DNA of 63,727 nt, filler included, from Folioceros fuciformis (Eukaryota), in assembly GCA_049999805.1 (NCBI GenBank). It is 16 parts of 16 records of this genome, joined end to end, with 100 filler letters (N's around TTAATTAATTAA, not from the genome) between each part and the next. Parts side by side here need not be neighbours in the genome. Positions count along the whole stretch, not along the records: positions 5,347 to 15,701 come from JBNGIO010003676.1; 15 more parts are not named here. One strand, 5' to 3'. The translations under genes were made by a program, and so were the position numbers. Every line of letters begins with the position of its first letter. Within the stretch, counting starts at the first letter, position 1. The notes beneath the pieces are model-generated. The model was not told where the DNA came from, searched no databases, and saw nothing but the letters and a program-made list of their open reading frames with translations. Shown one piece after another: positions 6,980 to 60,948 of the stretch.

Positions 6980-9900
6980 CTAGTCATCAAAGGTTGTCTT
7001 CTTGCCTGGGAAGAGGAGCAAGGTTCTGTCAGAGACGGTCGAAAGGGCTAGCCGACACAACAACTTGCAACACGGAGGCAGAAACTCAGACAACAGACCT
7101 GTGCCTGCTGCAGCAAGATTTACTCTGGCCCTAGGAGNNNNNNNNNNNNNNNNNNNNNNNNNNNNNNNNNNNNNNNNNNNNNNNNNNNNNNNNNNNNNNN
7201 NNNNNNNNNNNNNNNNNNNNNNNNNNNNNNNNNNNNNCCACCTCCACGACCCCCTCCACGACCACCTCCACGGCCGCCTCGTCCTGCAAGCCCAGATATC
7301 GTTTAAACAAACCTCTTGCGCGACGAGACAATAACATTGCACCGTGCGGCCGTTCCAGACAACATACCGCCATCACCACCGCCGAATCCCCCCCGTCCAC
7401 CTCTACCACCGCCTCTTCCTCCACCGCGACCACCTCGGTCCCCACCACTCCCTCCAGCTGGTGCTTGCCCAGCCTCATTTACCACTAACGTTCTACCATT
7501 GAGATCACTTCCGTCATACTCCAATGCCTTGGAAAGTCCATCCTTACTGTCGAACTCAATGTAGGCAAACCTGTAACACGGACAGGGAAACTAGGGTTTC
7601 CATGACCCAGCACTTCGTCCAAATTAAGGCAAATCAATTGATTCTTAGAACTTAAACCAGTAAAGCGAAGTTTAGTACCCCTTTATAGTTCCAGACTCCC
7701 TGTCCGTAGGAATACGGACCGTCACAACATCCCCACATTCACTGAAATGCTCTGTTAATGCATTTCGTATCTGCGATACACGGGGCAAAGCAGCAATCAA
7801 ATAACCGACAATTACTGACAGCCAGTAATCAGTCAAATAAAAATGACTGGCCGCCATAACTTTAGGTAAGTGAAAATAGCACTCACCAAGCCTTCATCTT
7901 GGAACTTGTCAAACCCTTTGACAAAGATGGTTTTGTCGGACCCAGGTCTGGGAGTCCCTGGTGTTCCACTGCAAGTGAAGAAAACTTCCATCAACCAAAA
8001 ATGCTAAGCACATGACCTGCGCTACACATGCAAGCTGATAGTGGTCAGGACAGGACAGGGCGAACAAAACCTACTAACTCACCCGAAGCCCCCAGTTCTT
8101 GGGGTAGTCCGATCACGCTCCTTTGCTAAATCTACCATGATACTCCTACCGGACAAACTTTCCCCGTTTTTCTTGAGAGCCTGCAGCAGGATAATTCAAG
8201 CAAATTCAAAAAGACTATTAGGTTCCCACTAATTGAAGTTCAGAAAGACTATTAGGTTCCCACTAATTGAAGAACCATCTGCTCCAGGACCGTATAATTC
8301 TTGTATAACACCCTATCAAACCAATATAAAAAAAAGGTACAAAGGAGCTACCTTCTCTGCCCCAACTCTGGTCTCAAACTCAATGTGACCAAATCCTCTG
8401 GATTGCCCGTTGTCATTCTGAGCGAGTCTTACATCTGAGATCTCTCCACAGTCCTTGAAAAATTCGTAACTGGTATGAACAAAGCACAAGTCACACTCGC
8501 GTTCATACAATGACTGGGAAATAAACTGCACATGTTATCCTTGGAAACTTCACCATTCACTAAAACTGTGGTGAGAAACGTACAGGGTGTCAGAATCCAC
8601 GGCCCAAGCCAAATTCTTCACAAAGATAGTCTTGCTCCCGTCTGTGTCATCCGCTCCTTTGACCGGGGTCTTAGGCTGTGAAATGAATTAGCATAATTAT
8701 CGCAACTTCAAGATATCCCACATAAGATCACAAAAAATGAAACTGTCCAAGACTCACCTCGACTTTCTGCTTTTTACTCTTGGGTTCGTCCGCCTGCTCA
8801 TTTTCCTCCTCGCTTTCTTCCTCTTCGCTTTCTTCATCCTCGCTTCCATTCTCACTTCCCTTTTTCGCTGCAGATTTTCCATTTTGCACTTTTGATTTTG
8901 CAGGATTTGCTGCAAGTTTGCCTGCAGGTTTTGGAGTTTCCTCTGCATCACTATCTTCCTCATCACTCTCCTCATCATCTTCACTGGACTCAGCTTCAAC
9001 AGTCTTAGCCGGTGGTGTTGCCCGCTTCTTGGCCGCAGCTGGTGTTGATGGCTCCTTAGCTGCAGAAGGCTGGCAAGGGCAAAAGAGAACCAGTTATACA
9101 CTTGGATTAGATTTACGACGCAAACGATCTTGAGAGGAATATCGTGACAAGGAAATCTACCTCTTCTTCGCTATCATCACTATCATCCTCGTCGCTATCA
9201 ACATTGGGGGCTGTCTTTGCTGCTGGCACAGGAGTTTCCTCATCACTGCTTTCATCACTCTCATCCTCATCAGCCACCTTAGTGGTTGCAACTTGCTTCT
9301 CTACGGCCTTCTTGGGCTGCACGTAGACATACAACTACTGACCCACTCAGGAGGGGAGGCAGACACTTGCAAGATCATACAGCAAAGAAAAGAAGACAAC
9401 CCACCTCGTCATCATCACTGTCGTCACTGTCGTCCTCGTCACTGTCATCAACCTCTCCCTTAGGTTTAGCAGCTGCACTAGCTGCTACTGGATTGGGCTT
9501 CGCAGGTACATTTCCAGCAGGCTTCTTGGGCTGGAAAACACAACACCGCTCCGTCACACCCAGATGTCAAAACCAAGGCAGGAAGGTCAGCAGTAAATTT
9601 TTGCTCACATACAGCTTCATCCTCAGAGTCTTCCTCCTCAGATTCATCATCAGATTCCTCCATGGGAACAGGCTTGGTAGCAGGCTGCAAACAGCCCAGG
9701 CATGAAACTCAGTAATGTGCTTGGCTCAGCACGCTGCAACGCTATGCAAACAAAATATCCACACCTCGTCATCGGAATCACTTTCGTCATCACTTTCTTC
9801 ATTGGCCGCAGCTTTCCCATTATCTGCTGGTGCCATTTCCTGCATCCCAAGCCAAACCCTGATCAACCTCCCAAGCAACGATCAACAAATTCACCGGCCG

Positions 9901-11337
9901 GCAGTACAACATCATACTCAAACTCAAACCTCGTCAGAAGACTCATCGCTGCTCTCCTCTTCTACCACAGGTTTCTTCACGACGGAACCCTTTTTCACTG
10001 GTTTGGCAGCTGGAATTTCCTGAATTCAGAAACCAGCAAAGCTTTCTCGAGTTATGACACAAACCGTGAACGAACACTTTGAAACAAAAAACATAACAAC
10101 CACTACCTCATCAGAAGACTCATCACTGCTCTCTTCCTCTGCCACAGGTTTTTTCACGACGGAACCCTTCTTGACCACTGTCTGGTCCTTCTTCACCGGT
10201 TTGGCGGCTGGAGTTTCCTGAATTTAGAAACCAGCAAAGCTTTCTCGAGTCACTACCAGCACAGCAACTTCGAAACAAAAACCCAACAACCACTACCACG
10301 TCGGAAGAATCATCACTGCTCTCGTTTACAACAGGTTCTATCACAACAAATACCTTCTTGACGGCTGTCGAGCCGTTCTTCACTGGTTTGGCAGCTGGAA
10401 TCTCCTGGATATAGAAACCAGCAAGCTTTCTCAAGTTATGACAACCAACGGTGGACAGCGACTTTATAACAAAACCCAACAGCAACCGACTACCTCATCA
10501 TCCGAAGAGTCATCACTGCTCTCCTCTTCTACCACAGGTTTCTTCACGGCAGAACCCTTCTTGACCCCAGTCAGGGTGGTCTTCACAGCCTTGGCAACTG
10601 GTGTTTCCTGAATTGAAGGTAGACGCGGAGGTTTCTCAAGTTAAGACCACAAATTGAGCACGCCCACTTTGAAACAACATCCCAACAACTGCCCTTACCT
10701 CATCAGAAGAGTCGTCATCACTAGACTCTTCCACAGGAGGTTTCTTTGGAGGAGGCGCCTTCTTAGAGGACTTGGATTCCTGTCGAAAGCACAGAACATT
10801 CGCTCCTCAGTCCTCTATCACGCGTGAAGTATCACACCAGCTGGTCGCACAGGCGAACCCTACAAACAAGACTACCACCTTCTCAGCCTTCGCCGGCACC
10901 GCCTTGGCAGGGGCCGCCTTCACCTTCTCCGCCTTCCCGCCATCACCTGAAAAGCCCCAAAGTCAATGAGCCATCGTTCACCACAGAGACAAACAGAACC
11001 ACAAACATGCGCAATTTCACACGGCGAGTGCCCTGAGTGATTCCCAGACATGCGACTCCGAAATCACCTGCCTCGTAATCCTTCCAGTTCAGCTCAGATA
11101 CTCTACAGGCCCGCCCTAGACTACCAAACCTACAGCCATGCACCTGTGCTCGCTGCTAGAAACCGGAAGCGTCGACATACGCTTACACCCCAGCCTAAAC
11201 CCCAGCATAAACCCCAGACACAAACTCTGGCCCTTGCGAGCAGAATCGAGCAGTTGATACATACTCTTCGCTGGAGTGACCTTGGCTGGAGTGACCTTGG
11301 CAACGGCCTCCGTATCATTGCGTCCGCGCTTGGCCAT
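6980..11337 (-). CDS. NUC-L1: Nucleolin (acidic/basic N-terminal repeats, two RRMs, RGG tail), about 20 exons
   Basis: ATG 11337. GT-AG exons with consistent phases: 11337-11265, 10946-10879, 10779-10699, 10607-10494, 10404-10297, 10217-10107, 10019-9930 and onward. RRM1 TIFVKNL/RGFGHIEF, RRM2 TIFVKGFD/KGFAYIEF. The GRGG tail spans an N gap and the protein ends GKKTTFDD* (TAG 6980-6982). Confidence 0.93.
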
Positions 11338-11421
11338 GGTGAATGCGCGGCTGGCTTCTGAAAGGCAGATGGGCACGCCGTGTATTCCACAGAGTCGTGA
11401 AAGGTTCTCGTGTACCAGTTC

Positions 11422-11468
11422 AGCCCATATAGGACTTGGTGGACTTACAAAACCCTAAGATCTTAGGG
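11422..11468. promoter_or_regulatory. Site II motif and telo-box upstream of nucleolin
   Basis: AGCCCA at 11422 and AAACCCTAA at 11450-11458, overlapping the palindrome CCCTAAGATCTTAGGG (11453-11468). This motif pair is typical of plant ribosome-biogenesis gene promoters. Confidence 0.6.
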
Positions 11469-11961
11469 CTGCTCGGTGTTCGACGGCGTTACCGTAATAA
11501 ACTTTTCTGTGACAGAATCTCCAAAGGGAGAGATAATACTGTAGGCGGCAAATATCAAGCGTACAGTAGCTGGCCATGCCAGGTACTTCTTGTGAAGGTA
11601 CATGCGACGTTTTCGCGGTCAGACCACTGTAGTGTGAATTGGGGCCCAACTCGGGCTGTCAATGCGGTCGACATTCGTGTTGGAGGAGACGCATTGCCTG
11701 CGCCTCATAACCAGAGCCTCTCACGAATCACCATACAGTCCTTGCGAATGCCGGTACTCTGCCACTCACGTGCTTGATTCAAAACGACCCAGGGAGGTCC
11801 AGAAGTGTCTGCGTCGGTCAGATGACTGACGTCGTCGTCGTCGGAGTTTGTGCGGGGCTCGAAGGCCCAAGCAGCATTTCGAGCTACACCTGTGAGCAGT
11901 CCGTTGGAGAGACGTGGCTCGGAGGAGACTGATCTTCAAGCTGTCCTGTCGCCAAGGTCTT

Positions 11962-14268
11962 TCAAGCGGCGTCTCCACATGAGCACATTCCATCCCTGAA
12001 ATGGTGCACGCGGTGAGCGTCCCGGACAATAAGCTCCCTCTTCTCGGCCTGCGAGAGTACCTTGGCGACGCTGTGGCAGGTGCTGCACATACGTAGAGAT
12101 TTGGTGACCAGCAGAGTGGAGCCTGCAGGAGTGTTCAGTAGGCCGAAAGATAAGGCCAGTCTCTCCGCGTGCCCGCACATGTTGTCGTCGTTTCCATTAC
12201 CGGCCGGGACGGCAGGGAATCCATGTACGTTGGTGACAGGAGGAGACAGTTCCTCGTCTCCTACAGTAAACTGATGCATCTTCTGATTCACTTCGATGAA
12301 GGCCTTGGCGGGCTTTTTACGTACACCTGAAGCTATCCTCAACCTGTCGACGTCCCAAGCGTCCTCCAATCTGCCGGCAGTTGCGTATAGACTTGACATG
12401 AGGACGTAGGCTGAGCCATGTTGAGGTTCTAGCTGCAGAAGACGGTCGAAGCACAGGCGTCCTCGCCCAACATCACCGTGGAGATTGCAGGCAGTCAGCA
12501 GGGACCTCCATCCCACGCAGTCGTTACCGAAGGGAAGGGTTTGCAACATCTGTTCAGGCTCGTCCATGTGGCCCGACCGCCCGAGCAAATCAACCATGCA
12601 GTTGTAGTGCTCCACAGTTGGTGCGATGCCATACCCTTCGACCATCATTTTGAAATACTCTTGCCCTTGGCTTACCAGCCCCATGTGACTGCATGCAGTG
12701 AGCAGAGACAAGAATGTGCAGTCATCGGGCTGTACTCCCTGTACCTTCATTTCCTCGAAGCAGTCCATGGCCAGTTCACAGTTGTTGTGCTGGCCATATC
12801 CGTTAATAAGAGAATTCCATGTGACTACGTTCCTCAAAATCAACCCGTCAAAAACGCGTTGAGCGTCCTCCAGGCTCCCGCATTTGGCATACATGTCCAC
12901 CAGAGCGCTCCCTATCTTTGGATCTTGTTCGAGTCCCCTGTCCAGAATTTCAGAATGTATCTGCCTGCCTGCTTGCAGAGCGCCGATGCTCCCACAGACT
13001 TTCAGAGTATTGATGAAAGTTACCCTGTCAGGCTTTGTTCCCTCTCGTTGCATACTTTCGTACAGATCAAAAGCTTCCGGGCCAGACCCATGCAGGGCAT
13101 AGCCACCTATCATGGCACTCCAGGTCACAATGTCTCTTGCGGGCAAACCGTCAAAGACACTGCGAGCATCATCTAAGCACCCACACTTGAGGTACATATT
13201 CACCACAGCGTTCCAAACAAATAAGTCTGATACACCGACGGTCTCCCGAATCTGAGCGTGAATTTGCTTTCCCTTGTCCACAGCCCCGGTCATTCCACAT
13301 GCTTGCAAAACAGCCACAAGGGTGTACTTGTCAGACATCACAACTTCTTGCTGCATCCTTTCATAGAGGTCAAGGGCGTCCTGACCAAGCTCATGGTGAG
13401 TATATGCTTGAATCATCACATTCCACGAGACTACGTCTTTGTGTGACAATGCTTCAAACACTGTACGCGCATCCACCAGGCTCTCACACTTGGCATACAT
13501 ATCCACTAGGGTGTTGCCAACACTTACCACACCTTGAAGCCCTTGTTTCTGAATGTCGGCATGAATTTGCCGGCCCTTCTGGATGTCGCCTCTCATAGCA
13601 CATGCTTTCAATAAAGCCTTGAAAGTAGCGTAGTCAGCAGAAACCCTGTCATCCTGCTGCATCAACTCGTGAAGGTCCAGGGCTTCTTGAGCGAGCCCAT
13701 TTTGGACGTACCCAGAGATAATGGCATTCCACGTCACCACATTTCGGGTTATCAAGCCGTCAAAGACTGCCCGAGCATCCCTCACGCTCTTGCACTTGCA
13801 GTACATGTCTACAAGGGAGGCTCCAACACAAACGTTCGACTCGAGTGCACTGTATACAATATCAGCATGCACCAGTCTGCCAGAACTTATATCTCCAAGA
13901 CAGGCGCAAGCTTTCAGGACTGCCACAAATATATAGCTGTTTGGTTTCACCCTTGACATTCGGAGCTGCTGGTACAATTCAATAGCCTCCAGAGCCTGTC
14001 CCTGCTCTCCATGTGCGGAGATGATTGAAGCCCAAACGTGTTCATCCGGAGCAGGCAGTTTGCTGAAGACTTGTTTGGCTTCAAGCAAGTTTCCATGCGA
14101 AGCATACATGCGGATAATGTGACTGGCCAGGAAAGCATTGGACTCAAACTTGCGTTTAGCCACAAGAGCATGTATTCGCCTGCCAACAACCAAATCTTTA
14201 TTTGCGATGCATCCCTTGAGGACACGATACAACATGTCTCTTGAAACAAAACGTCCTTGCCGGTCCAT
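11962..14268 (-). CDS. PLS-class PPR protein with E1/E2 and a DYW:KP-type deaminase domain (candidate organellar U-to-C editing factor)
   Basis: Intronless ORF open to 14349, first in-frame ATG at 14268. Repeated VDMYAKC..L.DA..VF/VVTWN..I.GY motifs, then PTVEHYNCMVDLLGRSG. C-terminus KKPAKAFIEV...HAERLAL...LRMCSTCH...RDAHRVHHF..G.CSCGDAA. Confidence 0.93.
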   Translation of the reverse strand: MDRQGRFVSRDMLYRVLKGCIANKDLVVGRRIHALVAKRKFESNAFLASHIIRMYASHGNLLEAKQVFSKLPAPDEHVWASIISAHGEQGQALEAIELYQQLRMSRVKPNSYIFVAVLKACACLGDISSGRLVHADIVYSALESNVCVGASLVDMYCKCKSVRDARAVFDGLITRNVVTWNAIISGYVQNGLAQEALDLHELMQQDDRVSADYATFKALLKACAMRGDIQKGRQIHADIQKQGLQGVVSVGNTLVDMYAKCESLVDARTVFEALSHKDVVSWNVMIQAYTHHELGQDALDLYERMQQEVVMSDKYTLVAVLQACGMTGAVDKGKQIHAQIRETVGVSDLFVWNAVVNMYLKCGCLDDARSVFDGLPARDIVTWSAMIGGYALHGSGPEAFDLYESMQREGTKPDRVTFINTLKVCGSIGALQAGRQIHSEILDRGLEQDPKIGSALVDMYAKCGSLEDAQRVFDGLILRNVVTWNSLINGYGQHNNCELAMDCFEEMKVQGVQPDDCTFLSLLTACSHMGLVSQGQEYFKMMVEGYGIAPTVEHYNCMVDLLGRSGHMDEPEQMLQTLPFGNDCVGWRSLLTACNLHGDVGRGRLCFDRLLQLEPQHGSAYVLMSSLYATAGRLEDAWDVDRLRIASGVRKKPAKAFIEVNQKMHQFTVGDEELSPPVTNVHGFPAVPAGNGNDDNMCGHAERLALSFGLLNTPAGSTLLVTKSLRMCSTCHSVAKVLSQAEKRELIVRDAHRVHHFRDGMCSCGDAA

Positions 14269-14292
14269 ACTGGCCAGCTCCCTCGAGGCCTG

Positions 14293-14546
14293 ATCGAAGA
14301 GTCCATCGTCACACAATTGACTCCAGCTGTCCTGGCTACATTTCAACACCGCATTCGATCAACAACGGAACATTGCTCCCCACTGATAAAAAAAAACCCT
14401 AGTGCAACTACCATGCCTCTCTCATCGAACAGTCCATCATCACATGATTGATTCCAGCTCTCCTGGCTGCATCCCAACCCCGCATTCGATCAACAACAAC
14501 AAGTTCCTCTCCACTGATAGACGAAACCTAATGCAACTATCGTGCC
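14293..14546. repeat. Diverged ~131-bp tandem duplication at the 5' end of the PPR gene
   Basis: ATCGAAGAGTCCATCGTCACAC...CCGCATTCGATCAACAAC...TGCAACTA from 14293 is repeated as ATCGAACAGTCCATCATCACAT... from 14424. Confidence 0.85.
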
Positions 14547-15474
14547 TGCTGCAAAGGAATAAACTTCACCTGTCAAGCTTATGACACACAGCTCCGTCCC
14601 TGCCCCTAGGCACACCTCCATCCGCGAATGCCTCACTCCTTCCTCTCTTCCACAACACGTCCTCACTATCTGGGCCTGACTGCCATTACCATTCAGCTAT
14701 CAGTTTCAATCTTCCAATCACGCATCTCCAGAAAAACACACTCTCATGACCCAGCCTCTACCTGCTTCATCCTGGATTCGGCCAGAAACTGCCTCCATAA
14801 TCCCTCGGCTGCACTCTGCTCATCTGCGGCACACCTGAAAACATAAAAACCTTCAAAGCCATATAACAGGCGAGTCACAAAAAGACAACAAAATAGGACA
14901 CCAGGCCTCACCCTGACTGCCGTGCTCCGCCGTGCTGTCCAGGCTGTACAGCCGCCTGGACCACTCCAACGCGGGGATATGAGGCCCAGCCTTGCTCCAA
15001 ACGAGCCCGCCGACAGCCCCGGACCTCCTCATAGCATCTTCAGCTCCCTCCAAGCATTGCTGCAACCAGCACTCACCTCACAACCTCCAGGAGACCTAGC
15101 AACACCAGGATTCATGCACCACCGGCGGCCTCGCAGGGCTTCCATCCATGCCCACTCTCCACCCTGTCCCTGCCTCGCTTCAAATTGCACCAACTCCTCC
15201 TCGACTGCCGCACTCCGTGTCACCGGTGCCTCCACTTCACATGGTTCTTCATCGTCTTTCGGAATTCAGAAAATTGCTATATTGTGTAGACTCTTTAGTA
15301 AGGAAACATTAGTCAATATAAAACCTCGAGGCGAAAGGACGGAACCGAGAGTCGTCTCAGTTTTTCTTTGGAGGGCTCCCAGACCAAGGGTGCGTCATCC
15401 GGAACGAGTTCGACTTCAGTCATCAGGCTTGCGGGTCCAGAGCTGCGCTCCGTGTGGTGACCCAAACTCTGCAA

Positions 15475-15687
15475 ATGACCAGAGGAAATCAGAGGGACCG
15501 CGACCGAGAGCGGGCGGCCGCGAGGACGGGCTCCGGGAAGGGAGCTAAGACGAAGGATGACGGGCTCACGCCGGAGCAGCGCAGGGAGCGGGACGCGAAG
15601 GCCTTGCAAGAAAAGCAGGCCAAGAAGGCGGCTAGCGGGGCTCCTGCCGGAGCACCATCGGGGACCAAGCCTGCTGCCAAGAAATGA
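15475..15687 (+). CDS. SERF: Small EDRK-rich factor (SERF/4F5 family), 70 aa
   Basis: MTRGNQRDRDRERA...DDGLTPEQRRERDAKALQEK is the family signature. ATG 15475, TGA 15687. Confidence 0.93.
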   Translation: MTRGNQRDRDRERAAARTGSGKGAKTKDDGLTPEQRRERDAKALQEKQAKKAASGAPAGAPSGTKPAAKK

Positions 15688-17139
15688 GAGCCACACCTAG
15701 TNNNNNNNNNNNNNNNNNNNNNNNNNNNNNNNNNNNNNNNNNNNNTTAATTAATTAANNNNNNNNNNNNNNNNNNNNNNNNNNNNNNNNNNNNNNNNNNN
15801 NTGAAGGTTGGTTCAATGAGAGCTAATATTATTCAATATTATTAATGAGAGTAGAACTTATTACTATTTTTATATTATTTAATCTACACATGGGTTTCAT
15901 CATATGTTGCAGGTGGAGGTAGTAGATTTAGTGATAGAAGATGGTACAGAGAAAGTGAGTTCATCTTACTTGAGAGAGCAAGTTGCCAAAGACACGGTTG
16001 AGTTATCCACTTGAATTGAAGCATTTAAGTTCAAGTGGAGCATTTAAGTTCCCAGTGTGGATGAGTCAATCATAGTTTTATCTATTACGAGGTCAAAGTA
16101 ACTGTTGAGAGACTCAATACAAGTCAGTCAATCATAGTTTTATCTATTACGAGGTCAAAGTAAATGTTGAGAGACTCAATACAAGTGGGTTGCGAGTCCC
16201 AGGGTACAGTTCTTTCATTTTCCTAGTCAACCTATATCAAAATGGGTACAATCCTTTTATTCTTCAAAGGCATGATAGTTTCCTTAAAATTGGAATGAAA
16301 TTGGATAGAACAATTTTGTTCATTGGCAAAGACTAGAGTTAGGATTTATAGNNNNNNNNNNNNNNNNNNNNNNNNNNNNNNNNNNNNNNNNNNNNNNNNN
16401 NNNNNNNNNNNNNNNNNNNNNNNNNNNNNNNNNNNNNNNNNNNNNNNNNNNTTGAATCATATAACTGACGTGGATCAAAAAAACAATGAAGTAAGCGAAT
16501 CCACTATGCGAGACTAATCTCCTCTAAACCATTTGGAAGGAGAATGCATATGAAGTAAGCGAATCTCGTATGCAAGACTAATCTCTTCTAAACCATTTGG
16601 AAGGAGAATGCATATGTGACAAGATAGCAAGCTAAACCCTTGATATTGAAGGCTTGCCACAACGAAAGATTTGCTTCTAACCTTCATAGTGCTTGAACTA
16701 ACATACGCATCTAGTAACATCTCAAAGTTATTTTTCTCAAGAAACATTCTCTAAACCAAAAACCCTGTAGAACCTTGCAGCTAGGCATTATGTGTGGGGA
16801 TCAAATGGCTGGGTTTCCAATTTGATGTGACGTTTTGAGATCAAATGACCAAAGTCTTTTGGTATAGATTGTTCAATTATTAGACTTTTGCAAGGGATCC
16901 TCACGCAAATGCTAACACGAGAGGGAGGTGGCCAAAAACCCTAAATTATTTTTGTTGCAATTTTATGCAGGTTTGTTGCATTGCTTGTCACAACTCTATA
17001 ACACAATGAATTGTGTTTTTGTTATCTCTTACACAAACATGTGGTGTTGTTGAAGATGCATATGGAGAAGCAAGCAACAGAAAGGGAAAAGGTAGTGAGA
17101 CATCGATTGTTTTAAAGAACAACCAAATAAGTATTTTGG

Positions 17140-19437: not shown

Positions 19438-21258
19438 GGAGGCGAAGGAAAAATAAAGAGTTGGTGAAGGCGGGCTCAAGTCGAAAACATCAATCCAAGA
19501 GCAAGAAGTCGGGGAAGGCCAAGCCGGAGTCTGCAAGCGCGTGACGAGGGGCGGAGCAAGCAAGGAAGGAGGTGGAATTGGCAGCCAAAAGGGTCGAGCA
19601 GCAAGGAACTAAATGGAGGAGATGTTGGCTAAACTGGAGAAGCTGCAGTTCAATGCTGTGAAGGATCAGGAGAGGCGGAGGGCCGCGATGGGAGGAAGAG
19701 CCAACCTCGTTTGCTCGACTTGTGGGCAACAAGGTCACTCAAGGGCAAGTTGCCCGCAGGTGAAGGTGTAGATTGTGGAGTATGAGGAGGAGGGGGAGGA
19801 AGCATATCTGGAGGACACCCATTAAATTCAGGAGGTAACGCCTATGGTGGGGTACCCAAAGACGTCCTATCCCCCACACTTGCGCAACAACGCACCTATG
19901 GGAATGATGGGCCAAGCTGCCAAGAATCCAGGACAGCTAACGACGATTCAGTGTTACAACTGCCGAGGCATAGGCCATTTTGCGAGTAGTTGTCCTTCGG
20001 CGACGCAACAGGGGAACGACGACTACGAGAGGTTGTGCACCGACTGCGAGCAGATGGGTCACGTTGCTGGGAGCGTCCTTTGTACAACACCGAAGAAACA
20101 TGTGAGGATCGCTGCCACCCCAGCAACTGTGATTCAGTCTGCTGGACCAAGTGCTCCACCGACAGCGCAAGTGGCAGTCGTGCTCATGGATGTATGGGAG
20201 GACGCAGAGGCTCACATGCTAAGAGAACTGGAGGGCTTGGGCAACCTAGACGAGAGGTATTATGAGGAAACACCCGCCATGGCTGTCCAAACCTGGGGTA
20301 GAGCCAAAGCCACTAAGGTGACCGATGAGTCGGAGCAGGAGAAGCGAGGAGGAAGAGGGCGACCTGTCTCCTCCAGTTCAATGAACACATCGATAGACTT
20401 AGCGACCTCCGTAAGCGGTGGAGAAAAGGAGACACCATCACCAGTGGAGCAGGAGGAAGCGTCGAAAGACCCAACGGAGGCAGAAATAGGAGATGGGGTG
20501 GCCTCTGATTCGGCGACGCGTGCTGAGGGAGAACGACAGTCCATGGATGAACCAGTCCCAGGGGCGGAAGCAGCAGGAGGAACCTCACGTCTGGATAGAT
20601 TGAGAGTGCTGGGTTTTCCTCCAGACGTTTGGCAAGAGGTAGCCGAAATGATCCAGGAGGAGTTGGACCAATCTCCTGAGCGTTCGGCGACGGCCGGTGA
20701 AGGGCGACCCAACTCAGCGATTGTAGGGAACCAGGAAGGGCCTGGGAAGACGGATGGACGACCTACAGCAGAAGCTGAGAAGGGGAGGATGCGAGTGCTT
20801 GACTTGGCAAAAGCCATCATGGACCAAAGGGATACCTAAGGAGTGGGGAGAACACATGATCGAGTTGGAGCCGGGAGCAATACCAGTCAGGATTCCTTAG
20901 TACAAGCTGAATTCGAAGTACTCAATGAAGGTGAAGGAGTAGCTAGAATTGTACCTCAGGGTGGACATCATTTATCCTATTGTCACCTTGGAGTGGGTAG
21001 CGTCGATAGTCGTGGTACCTAAGAAGCAACTAGGCAAGATCAGAGTGTGCCAAGATTGGAGGAGGCTGAACAAGGTGACCCAGAAGGACCATTTCCACTA
21101 CCATTCATCGACAACATTTTGGACTTAGTCGCAGGGCGGATGATGTACTCTTTCCTGGACGGATACTCAAGATACAACTAGCTGCATCTTCGAGAAAGTG
21201 ACTGGCCGCTGACCGCATTCACCACCAACTGGGGAACGTGTGCTTACAAGCGCAGTGC
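19438..21258 (+). mobile_element. Ty3/Gypsy gag with zinc knuckles plus RT N-terminus; protease deleted; degenerate
   Basis: CYNCRGIGHFASSC and CTDCEQMGH, homologous to 59383-60948. From ~20845: EHMIELEPG...IVVVPKK..GKIRVCQDWRRLNKVT.KDHF...YSFLDGYS with stops. Confidence 0.9.
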
Positions 21259-22128: not shown

Positions 22129-24868
22129 GAGTGCTTGGAGACATAGAGGAACGTAATCTCTCACCAGTTTGCATGAGAGTGTCGACAGGTTTGCAATGCT
22201 GCATCTGATATTTATCTAGCATGTCTACTACATATCTTTCTTGATGAAGACTGATGCTATTGGTGTTAATGATAACTTGTACACCGAGGATGAATTTGAG
22301 GACGCCATTGTCAGTCATCAGAAACTCCTTGCTGAGTTCACTTTTGATCAAGCTAAGAAAACTAAGATCGTTGCAACAAAGAACAAGGTCATCAACGTAG
22401 AGACCCAAGATAAGGTGAAAATTACCTTGTCTTCTTATGAAGACACTTGAATCTGCATGGGATTTGACGAAGCCCTTACTAAGCAAATGGAGTTGAAATC
22501 TTTCTTACCAGCCACGAGGTGACTGTTTTAAACCGTATAGGGTCTTGTGGAGTTTACATACTTTGTGGGCTTCCTCAGGTTTAACATAGCCCTCCGGTTG
22601 TTGTAAATAAATTTCCTCTCGAAGAACACCGTTCAGAAAAGCTGTTTGCACATCCATTTGATGTACATGCAAGTTGTGCATGGCAGATAAAGCAAGCATG
22701 ACCCGCAAGGAGGTAAGCTTGACCACTAGATTGAAGGTGCTTTCCTTTTGATAATCTAAGCCATCCTTTTGAGTAAAACCCCGTGCAACGAGTCTAGCTT
22801 TGTACTTGGAAAGACTTCCATCAACATTATACTTCCTCCTTAGTACCCATTTATTGGTCACAATGCTTCTGCCGGGAGGAGGGTCTACGAGGGTCCAAGT
22901 TTCATTAGCAATGAGAGAGTTGAACTCTCGATCCATGGAAGCTCGCCACTCAGTGCCTTCGTCACCATTAAGTGCTTCTCGTACGGCACGAGGGTCACTG
23001 ATGATAGAGACGGAATTAGCTAAAAGTCCTTTGAAGTACTCTAGGTCATCAAAACGTGTACCTGGTACTCCTTTATTTGTTCTTGTCGAACGTCGTAATC
23101 GTGGACCATGTAGCTCTGCAGGTGCAAGGGTTAGTAACACTTCTTCAGGAGCTTGTGCAGCTAAATCTGATCCTTCTAATCCTTCTCCCCCCAATAGCTG
23201 CAAAGGTCTGCCAGGAATTGGACGACGAGCCATCTGAGGAGAAGATAACACATGATAGGGCNNNNNNNNNNNNNNNNNNNNNNNNNNNNNNNNNNNNNNN
23301 NNNNNNNNNNNNNNNNNNNNNNNNNNNNNNNNNNNNNNNNNNNNNNNNNNNNNNNNNNNNNCGCCCAAGGTGGGGTGGACCCTATAGGTGGTGTCGTCGG
23401 AGGAGTAACGACAGCAAGTGTAGGGAGGGGTGGAATATGGGGTGCGGGAGGTACATAGGCAGCACCATCATGGAGAAACGTCTCCATAGAGGCCTGTGAA
23501 TCAGGGGCTGGATTATCTTGCGGAGCGGCGAAGTCTGTCAAGAGAGGCAGCTCATTAAAAATGACATTGCGGGCAAGAATGACCCGACGAGTCTGTCTGT
23601 TCAACAAGCGATAGCCTTTAACTCCATCAGATTCACCATAGCCAATGAAGGTCAGTGTGGTGGACCTGGGATCCAATTTCTTCTGTAATTCTGGTGGAAC
23701 ATGGGCATAGGCATCACAGCCAAAAATGCGAAAGTGGCTAACATTGGGCTTGCAGCCTGTCCATACTTCATACAGAGTCTTGCCATGAACAGTGGAAGTG
23801 CTGCAACGGTTTTGCACGTAACAGGCTGTAGTAGCAGCATCTGCCCATAGATAATTTGGAAGATGGGCTGTGGCCAAGGAGCTGTGGACAACATCCATAA
23901 AGGACCGATTTCGGCGCTCCGCCTTGCCCAACTGCTGATGTGCATAGGGCACTATCTTCTGATGTTGAATGCCATGAGCCAACAAGTGAGCTTCAAAGGC
24001 AAGGGAAGATAGTTCCTTAGCATTGTCTGACCGAAAAATCTTAATGCCCTGACCAGTCTGATTTTTAGTTAAAGCCTGAAAGGTTTTAAAATTGAAGAAT
24101 GCCTCTGACTTGTGAGTACGGAAGTAGAGGGTGGTAAAGTGACTGCAGTCATCGAGAATGACAAAGATGTATAATTTTTCTGCAAGGGAAGGAGTCTACA
24201 TGGGACCACATAAGTCGGCATGAACAACCTCAAGTACATTAGAGGTGTGTGAAGCGGACCTAGGATAGGGTTGGCTATGTTGCTTACCAGTAAGGCAACC
24301 AAGGTAGAAGGGCAAGTCAGACAGTGGATGTAAGGGTTAGAGCATTAGTTGTTGTGGCTAAGCTGGAAGTTGTGGACACAAAAGGTCTCCACGATGGGGG
24401 CAGGGAGCGAAGCAAGTACATTACTTGCGTATTTTTATCCACTGCCAAGCGTGATGAGAGGGCCTCATCGAGGGCTTGTTCCCATGTTGAAAGGAAATTA
24501 ATAGCAGATTCCCCTTCCTTGAGCTTTAAAGCAACAAGTTTATCGTGCTGTAAGAGTTGAGTTGTTAAACTCACCTCTTGAAAACAGCCAGAGAGCTTAT
24601 CCCAAATAGCCTTAGAGGTAGTTAACCGTTTAACTTTGGCAATGTGGCGATCTCCTAAATGGAGAACAATTTCTGTTTGAGCAGATTCATGAGAGGTGAT
24701 CCAAGCAGCTTCATTAGCATGACCGGCAGCAAGTTTCAAGGAAGTTCCAAATACTATGGGCCAAAGGCCTAGTTTTTGGAGTAGCATACGAAGTTTAAAA
24801 GACCAAGTATGCCAATTAGAATCAGACAGTTTTTCGATATTATAAGAATGAGAATTAGAAGTTGCCAT
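22129..24868 (-). mobile_element. Ty1/Copia gag-integrase-RT, internally deleted and degenerate
   Basis: gag (IEKLSDSNWHTWSFKLR), integrase (VHADLCGP, AERRNRS, FRIFGCDAYAHVP..KLDPRS) and RT (KYKARLVARGF, MDVQTAFLNG, LYVDDL). Confidence 0.95.
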
Positions 24869-25133
24869 GATTTGTAAGAAAGAACTTCTAATAAATAAAG
24901 AAAGAATTGTTATCTTAGGAAAGAAAGTACTGTAAATTTCGAGATTAGATATTAAAGAAACATCTAGAGAAAAAGAACTTGCTAAGAAATAAAGAACCGT
25001 ATTTTCTATTCTTTTTCTGTTTGAGAAGATTGANNNNNNNNNNNNNNNNNNNNNNNNNNNNNNNNNNNNNNNNNNNNTTAATTAATTAANNNNNNNNNNN
25101 NNNNNNNNNNNNNNNNNNNNNNNNNNNNNNNNN

Positions 25134-28480: not shown

Positions 28481-28630
28481 TGTGCAGCCGACCGTGTAGC
28501 GGCTCCTGAACAAGGAAGCTAGAACCTTTGTGCTTCACATCGACATCGTGCGTTGCAAGAAGAAAGAGGAGGCTGTGAAGCGATTCCTCCGAGGGGAGGC
28601 ATGGGGTGACTGATGGAAGGAGGTAGGAAG

Positions 28631-29373
28631 ATGGCGTGCACATGGCGGCCCCTGATTTTCCATCTCTGGGTCGTGATTCTGCTCCTGGNNNNNNNNNNNN
28701 NNNNNNNNNNNNNNNNNNNNNNNNNNNNNNNNNNNNNNNNNNNNNNNNNNNNNNNNNNNNNNNNNNNNNNNNNNNNNNNNNNNNNNNNGTGCAGGGCGTG
28801 GGGAGGGTGACCGAGCTTCGGCTCTTCGCCATGGGGCTGCAGGGAACGCTGGCACCCGAGGTCGGTAACCTGCAAAGCCTGGTGACGCTGAACGTGATGT
28901 GGAACAACATCTCGGGGAGCCTGCCTTCGTCCATCGGCAACCTGCAGTACCTGCAACTGCTGCTGGTGAGCGGGAACCGGATGACGGGCCGGCTGCCCCC
29001 GGAGCTGGGCCAGCTCAAGATGCTGGATAGGCTGCAGGTGGACGAGAACAACTTCACAGGCCCCATCCCGAACACCTTCACCCAGCTCCCCCGCGTGAAG
29101 CACCTCCATCTCAACAACAACTCGCTCTCAGGCTCCATCCCGGCGAATTTGGGCTTCCTCCCGCAAGTGCTCCACCTCCTGTTGGACAACAATCAGCTCA
29201 CGGGCGTCATACCCCCTGACCTGGCCAACAGCTCCACCCTCCACATCCTGCAGCTGGACAACAACCCCCTGGACGCCCAGCCCATCCCGGCCTCCTTCTT
29301 GGAACAGGGGAGACTCACCGCGCTCCTCAAGCTCAGCATGCGGCATTGCAATTTGATTGGAGTGCTGCCCCAG
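28631..29373 (+). CDS. LRR receptor-like kinase ectodomain (LRR-VIII-1/At1g06840-like), partial
   Basis: Signal-like MACTWRPLIFHLWVVILLL from ATG 28631, then an N gap. Plant LRRs follow with subfamily-typical MWNNISG, LDRLQVDEN, KHLHLNNNSLSG, HLLLDNN, ILQLDNN and LLKLSMRHC. Cut by the scaffold end. Confidence 0.85.
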
Positions 29374-30706
29374 NNNNNNNNNNNNNNNNNNNNNNNNNNN
29401 NNNNNNNNNNNNNNNNNTTAATTAATTAANNNNNNNNNNNNNNNNNNNNNNNNNNNNNNNNNNNNNNNNNNNNTAATTTTATTATATATATAATATTTAA
29501 AATAGCATGGATAATATAGATATGTAACTTATCCAATCACAATGCCATAAAAAAGCTTGGCGTATCCATATTAAAGATAAAATCATTAGAAATTATTGGA
29601 AACACTTTGTGTTATGGCAAGAGAGAGCAAGTGGTAGTGCGTCGGATATAGACTTGAATCAACTTAGTTTTAGACATGGAATGTTGACAATGATGATGAG
29701 TAACAGTAAGTCAACTAAGCAACACGTGAAGATTTGTTCAATAAAGATTACATAGAAATAGAAATGCTTCTTTGTTAAATAAGGGATTTGGGACTTGAAA
29801 CAACACGATTGACCCCTACTATGTCTTCACAAGAATTTGTTGATTAAGAAGTGACAAATGCATGTGCTATCTTTTCTATTCCAGATGCAAATGATACATG
29901 GGCTTCTATTCAACCTCCACCTGAAAATAAAGTTGTCGATGTTGAAAATTCTTCTACAGAATATTATCAAGAAAGGCCTATTTTAGGTTGAGCTCAAGTG
30001 GAAGATGCACTTGGGACTTAGGGTGATACTTATATTTTTGGAGCAACAACCAAATGACACTATATCTACAATTACGAATNNNNNNNNNNNNNNNNNNNNN
30101 NNNNNNNNNNNNNNNNNNNNNNNNNNNNNNNNNNNNNNNNNNNNNNNNNNNNNNNNNNNNNNNNNNNNNNNNNNNNNNNTTATAATATTTATTATATATA
30201 ATATATATTATAATTTAAATAAATTTAAATATTTTATTTTTGATAAATACTTGAATTCTCTAATTGTTACACCTCCCTAAATGTTACCCAATGCCCTACT
30301 CCTAACAGGTAACATTTAGGGAGGGTGGAATGTACATCTTGGAGACATGTGCCAGTTTGATCATCATTGTTATTGAAACACAAGTTCGAGTCGTTTGCGG
30401 GCCATTATCCATCGCCGACATCGATGCTAGAATCCTGGAGTGAGGGCAGTGTTGTGTTTGCCTTTTATTAGGTCTCATCGGGATCCAGTGGTTACGAATC
30501 CGCCCCCGCGCCTGGAGGTACCTGACTTGGCTTGGCACACACATCAATAACGATCTCTTGAAAGGAACTCCATTCTGAAAGTAGTGCCTCCGATCTGTGG
30601 GTTGAAAGGTAAGTGCAGGTGTGTCAAAACCCGGTTTTGACAAAATTGCCTCTTGACGACATATACTGTATGTGACATAGCTGCACTTCAGGTGCAGTTG
30701 TCAAAA

Positions 30707-45173: not shown

Positions 45174-46014
45174 TCTTCACGAGCTCTTATGGTCTGTCCC
45201 TGCTTGGTCTAGGACCTGCAGTGTGTTGCCGGCTGTGCAACGTCTGGTAGGATCGCAAGCCGTGTGTTGCCGGCTGTGCAGTGTCTGGTAGGATTGCAGG
45301 CAGCGTGTTGCCGGCTGTACAGTGTTTGGTAGGATCACAAGGTGTAATGACCAGGGTGAAGGGGCTTGCCCCTAGCTCTTGATTGTAAAGGATGTGTCTT
45401 TCTCTCGACCTGTCCACTCTTGTTCCTTGCTTGGACAAGTGCTGGAGGCCGGCCATGTCTCATGGCATCTGGTAAGGTTGTGGGGAGGAGATATCCAAGA
45501 GGGGAGTGTGTTCCCTTCTTTCTTTTCTTTGGGGTTAGTCTAGTGACTCTTGCCGGGTAGGAGGAGTCAGTAGGGAAGTGTAGAAGGTAGTGGTGTCATT
45601 GTTAATTGCTGGTGTTGGTGTTGGAGTGAGAGAGTGAGCGAAGTGAGTGAGGGAAGTCGCAGATCTAAGAGGTTAGGGTCGTTGTAGTGACTGGAGTGAG
45701 TTTGTGGGCACCGAGAGAGGTGCAGCTGACCGCTGGACAGCGAGGACTGTCCTACGCCTGATCGGAGCTGGAGGGGAGCNNNNNNNNNNNNNNNNNNNNN
45801 NNNNNNNNNNNNNNNNNNNNNNNNNNNNNNNNNNNNNNNNNNNNNNNNNNNNNNNNNNNNNNNNNNNNNNNNNNNNNNNCCTCCATCCACAGCAGCAAGG
45901 AACCCCATCGCTCCTTCGTGGGAATGAAACCCAATGTCTCAACGATAGTGGGATAAGTGTGGCCACTAAAGGTGGAACCCGTTGGCAATCAATGCCCGGG
46001 GTTTTGCCTCCACA
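45174..46014 (+). mobile_element. LTR family B (3' portion)
   Basis: Matches 3079-3712, ends TTTTGCCTCCACA, and includes a ~41-bp x3 subrepeat at 45220-45335. Confidence 0.8.
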
Positions 46015-46848
46015 CATGTCCGGGTCAGTAGTCTTGGGTTTACCATTCCGCAGTCTCCCAGACCATGGATTCACCGTTGGTGATTCACCATTGGTCACAT
46101 CCTCACTCTTTGCTGGAGTACTCTTAACAGTACTCTCCCCTATGGGTGCGTCATAGGGTAGTGCAACTGAGTTGCTATACCAGGAGGCTAACTCATTAAA
46201 TACCACATCCATGTTTATCAGGATCTCATGTGTGGATGGCACATAACACTTATATGCCTTCCTATTTCGTGCATACCCCAAAAAAACACTCTTTACTACT
46301 TTAGGATCCATCTTCCTATGCTTCTCATCAGGTACATGCACATATGCAATGCACCCAAACACTTTCAAGTGCCTAATATTCGGCTTATAGCCGTACAGTC
46401 TCTCAATTGGTGTAGCATCATAAATTCCTACCGTAGGAGTTCGATTCAGTACATACACTATTGTCATCACTGCTTCTGCCCAATAATCATTAGGTAAGCA
46501 CTTTTTCATTCAGCATTACCCTTGCTGTTTCCATGACTACCCTGTTCTTCCTCTCTGCAACACCATTCTGCTGTGGTGTGTATCTGCAAGTCAGCTATCT
46601 TCGTATACCATGATCTGCAAGATACTTGTTAAACTCATTTGAGACATATTCTCCCCCTCCATCTGATCTTAGACAAGAGATAGAGCAGTTGAATTCATTT
46701 TCAGCATGCTTTTTGAAGTCCTTAAAAGACTCGAACACTTCATCCTTATGCTTCAGTATGTACAGCCACGTGTACCTGCTGAAATCATCAATGAAGGAGA
46801 CATAGTAGTGGGCTCCTCCAAACGATGCATTATGTGAAGGACCCCATA
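46015..46848 (-). mobile_element. Ty1/Copia integrase fragment
   Basis: FIDDFSRYTW, LRSDGGGEY, YTPQQNGVAERKNR, YWAEAV, LKVFGCIAYVHVP. Confidence 0.95.
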
Positions 46849-59066: not shown

Positions 59067-59383
59067 AGCCTAGAATGTTGGACGGACCTTAGGGAAGCCT
59101 AGAATGTTGGACGTTACCTTAGGAAAGCCTAGAATGTTGGACGGACCTTAGGGAAGCCCAGAATGTTGGACGGACCTNNNNNNNNNNACGGACCTTAGGG
59201 AAGCCCAGAATGTTGGACGGACCTTAGGGAAGCCTAGAATGTTGGACGTACCTTAGGGAAGCCTAGAATGTTGGACGGACCTTAGGGAAGCCGAGAATGT
59301 TGGACGTTACCTTAGGGAAGCCTAGAATGTTGGACGGGACCTTAGGGAAGCCTAGAATGTTGGACGGACCTTAGGGAAGCCTA
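59067..59383. repeat. 29-30-bp tandem satellite, ~11 units, open at the scaffold end
   Basis: Unit AGCCTAGAATGTTGGACGGACCTTAGGGA with few variants. Confidence 0.95.
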
Positions 59384-60948
59384 CCGGCTGCATTCTAGAC
59401 ATATCAACTAACCTCAAAACTTTGGTTGTGTGCTCGATCTCCAATCCCAGTTTCTTGGCTGTATCCTCCGTCATAATATTCACCCCTGAACCTGTATCCA
59501 ACGGCACCCTCTTAATCACGCAGCCTGCAATTTCCACCTGCAGTTCAGCCGGTCCTTGGTCCACCATGGACACCATGTTGACCATAGGAGCCGACAACCT
59601 TGACCCTGATTTAGGTAGCCTCTTCCTCCTCTTGGGCTGGGCCTCCTGTAACACCTTCCGAACCTGCTGTCGATACTTAGGGTTATCCTTCAAGAGCTGG
59701 CCAAAGGTGACAGCAAATTGCTGGTCCATGATGGCTCCAGCCAAATCAAACGGCTTTTGGTCAGCTCCATCGGTCCCTTTTGTCACAGCTGCCACCTCCC
59801 TAGGTGGCAGACTTGCAGCCACGGGAGCTGACTCCCTGGCTGCCCTGTCCAGCTCCTCTTGGATCATGTCCAGCACTTCTCTCCTCACATCTAGAGGAAA
59901 TTCCAGGTTTTCCCCCCTTGCTGGACCTGCTCCAGCCTCTCCAGCCCCTGATTTTTCCTCTTTAGGGATCTGCCCTTCTTGGTCTCCCCCTTCTTGACCT
60001 GATTCCTCTCCATCCGGAATACTCTTCTCCTCCTCCTCCGATCCTGCAGCTGATTCTACTTCCTTCCCTTTCTTCTTGGCAGCCCGCTGCCTCCCTCTTC
60101 TCTTCCCACTGCGGGTACATACAGCCATGGCTGTATCCTCCCCATAGTAACCCTCCTTGGTGCTGTCCAGCCCCCTAAGAACCTTGGCCTCAGCCTCCTC
60201 CCAAACAGCCATGAGGGCATCTTCCACTTGCATGGCTGTTGCGGTCCCTTGAGGTGCTGCTTGCTGCACCCCCGTCACCGCCGGCTACGCTATTCTCACG
60301 CTCTTCCTAGGGTTCTGGCAAAGCACGCTGCCCGCCATGTGCCCCTGCTGTTTGCAGTCCTGGCACAACCTATCGAAATCCCCATTGGCCTGCCTAGTCG
60401 CTGATGGACAGCTGTTAGCATAGTGCCCAAATCCACGACAATTGTAGCACTGGACGACCCCCCCTGGTTGCCCAGCCACTCTTCCCACCTGGTTGTTGCG
60501 ACCACCCATGGCCATAGGGTTTCGCAGAATCGACGGGTGGGTGATCTTGGGGTACTGCTGACCTTGGGAAAATTCCTGGATTTGGTAGGAGTCCTCCACC
60601 GGCCACTCCTCCTCCTCCAAACCATAGGCCAGCAAGTGCACCTTGGCGCCTTGGCAATGGGTCTTGGTGTGGCCTTGCTCACCACAATTGGAACAAAATA
60701 AGTTAGCCCTGCCACTAGCTGCAGCCCTCCTCCTCTCATGCTCCTTAACAGCATGAAGGTGGAACTTCTCAAATTTGCTCAGCATTTCCTCCATCTTGGA
60801 TTCTTGCTGTTCCACCTTCTTGGTTGCAGCCTCAGCCTCTTTCTTAACCTGCTCCACTTCCCTCTTAGCATGGGCCACCTCTTGCTTGGCCTTGGTCAAA
60901 TCTTTGGCCTTCTTGGCCTCCCTCTTCTTCCTTGCCATCTCCTGCTCC
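59384..60948 (-). mobile_element. Ty3/Gypsy gag (three zinc knuckles) and aspartic protease
   Basis: CSNCGEQGHTKTHC, CYNCRGFGHYANSC and CQDCKQQGHMAGSVLC. Protease VPLDTGSGVNIM. One in-frame TAG at 60285. Confidence 0.9.

Follow-up and report, generated by a model that had tools for sequence, protein, structure and literature searches.

We know of no candidates for enzymatic U-to-C RNA editing other than DYW:KP domains; those that, to our knowledge, have been tested are all consensus designs of 132–136 aa. The class is defined by a KPAxA box that takes the place of the PG box at the start of the domain (PMC11845758, PMC9478123), and it has been catalogued as a subgroup among the PPR proteins of hornworts, lycophytes, and ferns (PMC13386178). 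DRH- and GRP-type ends are attributed to hornworts, and native proteins of this type were the basis of the designer domains KP1–KP3 (Ichinose et al. 2022, PMC9478123). U-to-C editing by designer KP domains depends on HAE, CxxC, and Lys88 (PMC9478123, PMC11845758). Takenaka et al. propose that U-to-C editing may not need strong autoinhibition, and report that replacing the β-finger of OTP86 (residues 875–890) with GGG markedly reduced editing (PMC7611903).

We identified a DYW:KP-type gene on the minus strand of a 63,727-nt stretch of Folioceros fuciformis DNA (the window, meaning the whole stretch analyzed). Translation of 11962–14268 yields a 768-aa ORF from its first ATG – a PLS-class PPR protein with KP-type deaminase motifs within its C-terminal 118 residues. 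All motif strings quoted in a preliminary description of this DNA were found in place in the minus-strand translation: the box KKPAKAFIEV, in the position of the PG box (residues 651–660, nt 12289–12318); HAERLA (residues 700–705, nt 12154–12171); LLVTKSLRMCSTCH (residues 719–732, nt 12073–12114); RDAHRVHHF (residues 749–757, nt 11998–12024); and CSCGDAA, which joins a CxC zinc-2 motif to a variant terminal tripeptide (residues 762–768, nt 11965–11985) and is followed by the stop codon (11962–11964). The string VTKSLRMCSTCH is also present among the motifs of the domain, after HAERLA and before RDAHRVHHF. No further PPR or DYW gene was found in the window by tblastn.

The PPR array (12313–14331, minus strand) was delimited by motif assignment and Pfam. 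It opens with a degenerate P-like motif, continues with four L-S-P repeats, and closes with L-S-P2-L2-S2-E1-E2, with canonical motif lengths of 35–36/35/31; the P2-L2-S2-E1-E2 end precedes the deaminase-like domain, which is the arrangement of the DYW:KP subclass. The ORF matched Pfam DYW_deaminase (PF14432) far above chance (95.5 bits, E 1.6e-27, cut-off 24), and E_motif and several PPR families also exceeded their Pfam cut-offs. The PF14432 match covered only profile positions 19–91 of 93 – a first hint that the region preceding HxE is aberrant.

The deaminase-like domain (11965–12318, minus strand; 118 aa from the KKPA box) had been proposed to be of the DYW:KP type, and both trees and profile scores bear this out, placing it within the HAE/KP lineage and not with DYW:PG. 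In the first tree its 95* clade has 24 rows (22 HAE and two HVE), and 37 HSE rows form a separate 99* clade. A second tree, built with the KP box, the gating segment, the middle residue of HxE, and the terminus masked, again placed it in a 95* clade, here of 17 HAE/HVE rows. The HMM scoring that the preliminary description had called for gave 153.6 bits for the KP clade versus 123.0 for PG (+30.6), with 134.5 bits against the HCE profile; the class labels in trees and HMMs alike were set from motifs and not from a curated reference set. The domain carries the HAE and CxxC signature of the KP subclass (HAERLA ... CSTCH), and shows KPA, HAE, and DAA instead of the PG box, HSE, and terminal DYW of canonical DYW:PG domains. 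Its relatives in the tree end in DRH, GRP, DHR, and DRP, the nearest being Logan contigs with DRH/GRP-type ends, and the sister HAE clade contains fern proteins from Ceratopteris and Adiantum. By descent, the domain is thus a DYW:KP deaminase-like domain from a clade of DRH- and GRP-ending forms described from hornworts, and a KP-type factor at this locus is expected biology for such a plant.

The terminal tripeptide DAA had been singled out as atypical, an impression that did not survive comparison with the clade. The 23 other clade rows show 16 different tripeptides – among them DRH, DHR, DHV, DHH, DDL, DKL, DDT, DRP, DSP, GRP, and VDH – mostly with D at position −3. DAA keeps this D; the two positions after it are free to vary across the clade. 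Judged against these rows, the DAA end is not special.

The domain keeps 12 of 12 invariant columns in a 46-sequence alignment, and the H, E, C, C, and H of the zinc signature all fall in such columns. HAE (12163–12171) supplies the catalytic Zn ligand His700 and, after the Ala typical of KP domains, Glu702, and CSTCH (12073–12087) forms the CxxCH zinc motif. Lys723 (12100–12102), within VTKSLRMC, corresponds to the invariant column K134 of alignment A1 and is the equivalent of Lys88 in the designer KP domains, which are 132–133 aa long (PMC11845758); it stands at domain position 73, that is, 88 minus 15 missing residues. Of the 42 positions outside the gating segment that are conserved in the clade, 37 are unchanged and the other five carry conservative substitutions (K>R, A>S, N>S, T>A, I>L). 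Five mismatches is a count at the high end for the clade, whose members show a leave-one-out median of 1 (range 0–10). As read from the alignment, the zinc/catalytic core is intact: His700, Glu702, Cys728, Cys731, His732, Lys723, and the HxxF...CxC zinc-2 motif are all in place. The AF2 model has a mean pLDDT of 86.8, with core residues above 90, and by fold it best matches the synthetic PPR-DYW 9kfx (E 1.6e-18), the OTP86 DYW domain (7o4e/7o4f), and DYW1 (7w86).

The native DRH/GRP-type DYW:KP proteins of hornworts are the closest systems. Like them, the protein described here has a PLS array ending in P2-L2-S2-E1-E2, the KPAxA box, HAE, TK(N/S)LRMCxxCH with the Lys88 equivalent, RDAHRVHHF, CSCG, and a non-DYW end, and it falls in the same starred clade in both trees. 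It differs from them in HAERLA in place of HAEKLA, in the DAA end, in the five conservative changes, and above all in length: 118 aa, whereas typical relatives have 133–134, so that 15–16 aa are missing and the domain falls short of a full length of about 132–136 aa that includes the gating insert. The spacing from KP box to HxE is 39 aa, the third shortest among 185 domains and the shortest among the 26 HAE domains (median 54 aa). What remains of the gating domain is a 25-aa Pro/Gly/Asn-rich linker (12178–12252, minus strand), delimited by spacing, AF2, and shuffles, that is predicted to be disordered (pLDDT about 48–55). Two tree neighbors, P0004 and P0010, have partly shortened domains of 126–127 aa. 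The protein is an ordinary family member apart from a gating insert reduced to a short floppy linker. Among the literature matches listed, judged by titles and abstract openings, we found no account of a KP domain that lacks the gating insert, though Supplementary Note 6 of PMC7611903 (on gating in KP proteins) and Supplementary Fig. S2 of PMC11845758 (on KP length classes) may already cover short-gating KP forms.

In the PDB, the top hits by structure and by sequence are DYW:PG factors – the OTP86 DYW domain (7O4E/7O4F) and 9KFX, a synthetic PPR-DYW with RNA. These share the deaminase fold, the zinc sites, and the active-site lysine, but have the PG box, HSE, DYW end, and a full gating domain (H837–G891 in OTP86) where ours is shrunken; the sequence alignment to 9kfx breaks at the gating domain, with 21 residues here versus 40. 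Arabidopsis DYW1 (7W86; fold match over 78 columns, rmsd 2.7), in which the N-terminal/gating part of the DYW domain is naturally incomplete, works in trans with a PPR protein of the E+ type (PMC7611903). It has neither a PPR array nor a PG box, whereas the protein here keeps its own PPR array and a KP box. The engineered OTP86 Δ875–890GGG has likewise been deprived of a large share of the gating insert (Takenaka et al. 2021, PMC7611903), but it is a PG-type mutant with markedly reduced editing, whereas here the loss is natural, affects a KP-type domain, and is larger, extending to the helix α-1 region.

Such an odd segment could be artefactual – the product of an intron left unspliced, of misassembly, or of a compensated frameshift within an otherwise normal gating domain – and the assembly is not error-free, since a single base (12558) differs from all three sequencing runs (X1–X3). 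A spliced contig of run X3 and DNA contigs of runs X1 and X2 are, however, collinear with the window across 11882–13860, with no indels there, which rules out an unspliced intron. Nor do the other two reading frames contain a gating-like peptide. We detected no similarity of the remnant to relatives' gating segments in any frame: when the three frames were scored against 22 KP gating segments, 177, 49, and 35 of 200 shuffles reached the observed score, so that no frame beat its shuffled controls. The frame translations and shuffle scores rule out a compensated frameshift, and we consider an artefact of any kind extremely improbable.

The gene is nuclear, transcribed, and spliced, and encodes an 830-aa PLS-class PPR protein. 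Three GT..AG introns lie at its 5′ end, and in run X3 a single contig of 3472 nt connects four exons, while the DNA runs X1 and X2 are contiguous across all three introns; X3 is labelled only ‘RNA?’, and we read it as RNA-derived because its contig has three GT..AG joints absent from the DNA runs. On the minus strand, untranslated exon 1 spans 14909–15249 as far as the spliced contig (X3 record 17) covers it; its outer limit is where the contig stops and not a mapped start of transcription, and its 3′ boundary carries an ambiguity of 3 nt. Intron 1 (14832–14908; GT..AG after an equally good 3-nt shift) is followed by exon 2 (14762–14831, first in-frame ATG at 14770), intron 2 (14680–14761, GT..AG), and exon 3 (14570–14679), which is coding and adds an N-terminal extension. 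Intron 3 (14336–14569; GT..AG, read as CT..AC on the plus strand) is defined by the joint 14335>14570, seen in X3 only. Exon 4 is coding over 11962–14335, stop codon included, and the X3 contig matches the genome collinearly through this exon and continues to at least 11400. The preliminary description had missed the introns and the transcription, the loss of the gating segment, and the want of an obvious presequence.

The 5′ end of the gene looks rearranged, with a duplicated segment within intron 3. Positions 14421–14526 are an 80% identical copy of 14290–14395 – a 106-nt two-copy repeat, of which the copy at 14290–14395 straddles the 3′ end of intron 3 and the 5′ end of exon 4 – and Tandem Repeats Finder reported no repeats in 14000–15700. 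In the spliced product, the first PPR-like motif is preceded by 41 residues, including acidic ones, in which inspection of the sequence revealed no obvious transit peptide.

A rearranged 5′ end and a presequence that is not evident are features that a decaying or catalytically dead paralog might show. Such a paralog would be transcribed and may bind RNA through its PPR array, but would no longer edit; it could be a pseudogene in the making, or a factor for site recognition or RNA binding only, possibly dependent on a different DYW protein in trans. The erased gating segment, with its 15–16 lost residues, fits this account, as do the reduced editing of the OTP86 β-finger deletion, the long terminal branch of the domain (0.58 versus a median of 0.32), and the very large PPR families of such plants, in which recent duplicates abound (PMC13386178). 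So do the ortholog searches: a full-length search put 7870 of 8000 scored candidates at E ≤ 1e-50, yet none exceeded 49% identity and no close ortholog was found among them; residues 650–712 gave 29 candidates and none at E ≤ 10 in a 5.8-billion collection, a weak test given the 63-aa query. Against decay, the 830 codons are free of stops and frameshifts, the gene is spliced and represented in an RNA-derived contig, and the AF2 core is confident. All catalytic and zinc residues are kept, with only five of 42 conserved core positions changed, and conservatively. This retention is unlike neutral decay lasting long enough to erase the gating segment, and a kept core beside an unrecognizable gating segment argues that the core is still under constraint. 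We regard a dead or decaying paralog as a possible but rather unlikely outcome.

The reading we prefer, with a probability of roughly 0.5, is that the gene belongs, as a divergent member, to a known class and probably still encodes an editing factor, un-gated or weakened. Counting against it are the short spacing, the long branch, the five mismatches, the absence of an evident presequence, the rearranged 5′ end, and the lack of a close ortholog (best identity 49%). Under this preferred reading, the PPR array would bind a single organellar RNA site, predicted by the P/S-motif code, with S2 set opposite −4, to read roughly G(−19), U(−15), U(−13), U(−12), U(−10), G(−9), A(−7), U(−6), and U(−4). 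The domain would convert the pyrimidine four nucleotides downstream of the bound site, most likely from U to C, by the mechanism demonstrated with designer KP domains, which depends on a lysine. Loss of the gating insert would leave catalysis either constitutively open or weakened, and the OTP86 β-finger result implies that it may cripple activity.

Should the enzyme be active, it might instead edit mainly from C to U, or in both directions, despite its KP ancestry. The designer KP6 has both activities, a few substitutions near the active site can reverse the direction of the reaction (PMC11845758), and the domain combines several clade-atypical substitutions with a lost segment adjoining the active site. 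However, it keeps HAE and the equivalent of Lys88, whose loss turns KP domains to C-to-U editing, and it lies deep inside the KP clade in the trees, so this alternative appears very unlikely.

That the domain is a natural minimal 118-aa DYW:KP domain, editing from U to C without any gating domain at all, is a stronger proposal, and we put it forward as a doubtful candidate. The locus is a natural experiment on whether gating has any bearing on the reverse reaction and on the minimum size of the module. An inactive domain would be an example of family decay in which the regulatory insert was lost before the core. If ungated U-to-C editing is true, the gating switch of C-to-U DYW domains would be dispensable for the reverse reaction, and the domain would represent a more compact, constitutively open U-to-C module.

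The 768-codon open frame that runs from the first ATG occupies 11962-14268 on the minus strand. Every motif string quoted in the preliminary description was located in the translated window, all on that strand: the KP box KKPAKAFIEV (12289-12318), HAERLA (12154-12171), LLVTKSLRMCSTCH (12073-12114), RDAHRVHHF (11998-12024) and CSCGDAA (11965-11985), which is followed by the stop codon (11962-11964). Pfam assigned multiple PPR families to the frame, an E motif to residues 597-659, and PF14432 DYW_deaminase to residues 694-766 (95.5 bits against a cut-off of 24 bits; E 1.6e-27; profile positions 19-91 of 93).

The nearest proteins in a collection of 5.8 billion were Logan contigs (51-53% identity over E1-E2-DYW, 44-49% over the full length). 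All have a K(K/M)(P/L)A box, HAE, TKNLRMC and RDAHRVH(H/R)F, with DHR, DRH, DHV, VDH, DDL, DRP, DKL, DHH, DDT or GRP at the C-terminus. An exhaustive HMMER search returned 1966 proteins at E <= 0.001, and 278 fetched proteins yielded 185 complete domains – 136 HSE, 26 HAE, 21 HCE and 2 HVE – after 93 without an HxE...CxxC match having a 66-72-residue tail were dropped. We built one tree of 89 rows (all 49 non-HSE domains and 40 HSE domains drawn at random, with 96 HSE rows left out) and another of 85 columns in which the KP box, gating segment, HxE middle residue and terminus were masked; both were 'quick' IQ-TREE runs on few columns, of which starred branches alone were relied on.

In the 89-row tree, the domain fell within a starred clade (SH-aLRT 95) of 22 HAE and 2 HVE rows and outside a starred clade (99) of 37 HSE rows, with HCE rows placed between the two. 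It belonged to a 17-row subclade (support 92) that contains DRH/GRP-type ends and is sister to a 7-row clade with two fern proteins. Masking left it in a starred 17-row HAE/HVE clade, 71% identical to one relative (P0005). Profile HMMs, whose class labels, like those of the trees, were assigned here from motifs, scored it at 153.6 bits for the KP clade, 134.5 for HCE and 123.0 for HSE...W. Its KP-over-PG margin (+30.6 bits, versus +38.8 to +69.8 for training members) is expected to be smaller because the domain is not a training member and lacks the gating columns. The proposed DYW:KP class thus stands even with the diagnostic columns hidden, and clustering with canonical DYW:PG domains was not seen. 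A DYW:KP subgroup has already been catalogued in the genomes of hornworts, lycophytes and ferns (PMC13386178, PMC9478123), so this assignment adds one more member to a known group.

The DAA terminus, earlier singled out as atypical, is absent from the other 184 extracted domains. The 23 other KP-clade rows carry 16 different end tripeptides, however, with D at -3 as the commonest feature, which DAA retains, and PMC11845758 describes the last three residues of KP proteins as diverse. The DAA end is no meaningful outlier.

Resemblance to relatives extends 5' of the first ATG as far as a stop codon, through a region without an in-frame ATG, so we suspected an intron. We compared window 11400-15700 with contigs of public runs that carry the same organism label, the DNA runs X1 and X2 and a run labelled only 'RNA?', X3; these contigs carry no information on transcript ends or expression levels. 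A single 3472-nt X3 contig was collinear from 11400 to 14335, joined 14335 to 14570, 14679 to 14762 and 14831 to 14909, and continued to 15249. The three skipped pieces are GT..AG on the gene strand, the first after a 3-nt shift that fits equally well. Because X1 and X2 contigs span these pieces uninterrupted, with none of the joints, the joined contig is most simply RNA-derived. The spliced frame starts at an ATG at 14770 and encodes 830 residues, with several acidic residues among the 41 that precede the first PPR-like motif.

Intron 3 holds, at 14421-14526, an 80% identical copy of 14290-14395, a 106-nt direct repeat. The latter segment straddles the boundary between intron 3 and exon 4, and the intronic copy, the upstream one of the pair, mimics the exon 4 start. 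The 5' end of the gene has therefore been rearranged. Translation reveals one more look-alike, weaker than these two, farther upstream. Rearrangement would fit a paralog that is non-catalytic or decaying, as would the lack of an evident presequence, a long branch in the 89-row tree (0.58 versus a median of 0.32) and the failure to find an ortholog in the 5.8-billion collection, given the full-length identities of 44-49%.

Several other features were observed in the window. At 12558, the window has G and contigs of all three runs have C, which on the gene strand puts Ala, family-typical in the S2 motif, in place of Pro571 of the 768-aa frame; the mismatch reflects a difference between strains or else a mistake in the assembly. 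One S-motif (12840-12983) shows a summed contig depth of ~600-1070 across X1-X3, against roughly 5-90 in other bins, and many loose contig ends – a peak that marks the organism's very large PPR paralog family. A multi-exon gene, read by eye, adjoins at ~9000-11340 (minus strand; start apparently about 11337), whose exons are short, repeated and Asp/Glu/Ser-rich, with small introns of a similar kind in between. Long open frames at 22505-25081, 45673-46509 and 59352-60284 (minus) and 19826-20839 (plus) have translations resembling LTR-retrotransposon gag, integrase and reverse-transcriptase parts, and one at 28627-29421 (plus) has putative leucine-rich-repeat motifs, as typical of plant receptor-like kinases. 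The 46 masked N stretches (2830 N) form a regular pattern of 100-N blocks and paired 44-N blocks; none lies within 9000-15700.

The domain departs from its class between the KP box and HxE, a stretch of 39 residues versus medians of 58 (185 domains) and 54 (26 HAE) – the third shortest overall and the shortest HAE form. From KKPA the domain measures 118 residues, versus 133-134 in typical clade members; two tree neighbours (P0004 and P0010) have 126-127. Where the gating domain would be, a Pro/Gly/Asn-rich remnant of 25 residues (12178-12252, minus strand) interrupts alignments to relatives and to a solved synthetic PPR-DYW. RNA-derived and DNA contigs are collinear across it without indels, ruling out an intron. 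No gating-like peptide is encoded in either of its alternative frames, and in comparison with 22 KP gating segments none of the three frames did better than shuffled controls, ruling out a recent compensated frameshift. The remnant is therefore a real segment, and an artefact is highly improbable.

According to PMC7611903, the OTP86 gating domain (H837-G891; helix alpha-1 plus a beta-finger) interrupts the deaminase fold and controls whether the catalytic zinc can be reached, and editing fell markedly when GGG took the place of residues 875-890. This last result also favours a non-catalytic or decaying paralog, a reading we consider possible but doubtful.

The rest of the domain is well kept. 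It retains each of the 12 columns that are invariant in an alignment of 46 sequences (H, E, A, K, C, C, H, S, R, D, H, C), along with 37 of 42 positions that, outside the gating segment, are at least 90% conserved among the 16 other subclade members; the other five are conservative changes (leave-one-out median for subclade members, 1 mismatch; range 0-10). Using the same alignment, AlphaFold2 modelled the 179-residue E1-E2-DYW piece with a mean pLDDT of 86.8 (138 residues at least 90) and the expected order of strand-strand, helix, strand, helix, strand-strand; low pLDDT (~48-55) was confined to the remnant. The best Foldseek matches were 9kfx (E 1.6e-18), 7o4f/7o4e and 7w86. Lys723 corresponds to Lys88 of designer KP domains, reported in PMC11845758 to be essential for U-to-C editing. 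It seems unlikely that the domain has changed over to C-to-U editing or works in both directions.

The PPR motifs are canonical in length and order. Under the published PPR code, the residues at the fifth and last positions of the P and S motifs, with S2 set opposite -4, predict G(-19), U(-15), U(-13), U(-12), U(-10), G(-9), A(-7), U(-6) and U(-4).

An erased gating segment beside a well-kept core, an intact 830-codon frame, a regular array and a spliced transcript favour a protein still under constraint. The near-loss of the gating domain is a variant of the KP-type domain, of which we found no description in literature listings, a search that left out supplements and the Gutmann 2020 and Gerke 2020 catalogues. 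We put at about one in two the probability that the gene encodes an organellar U-to-C-type editing factor that works without gating or at reduced efficiency.
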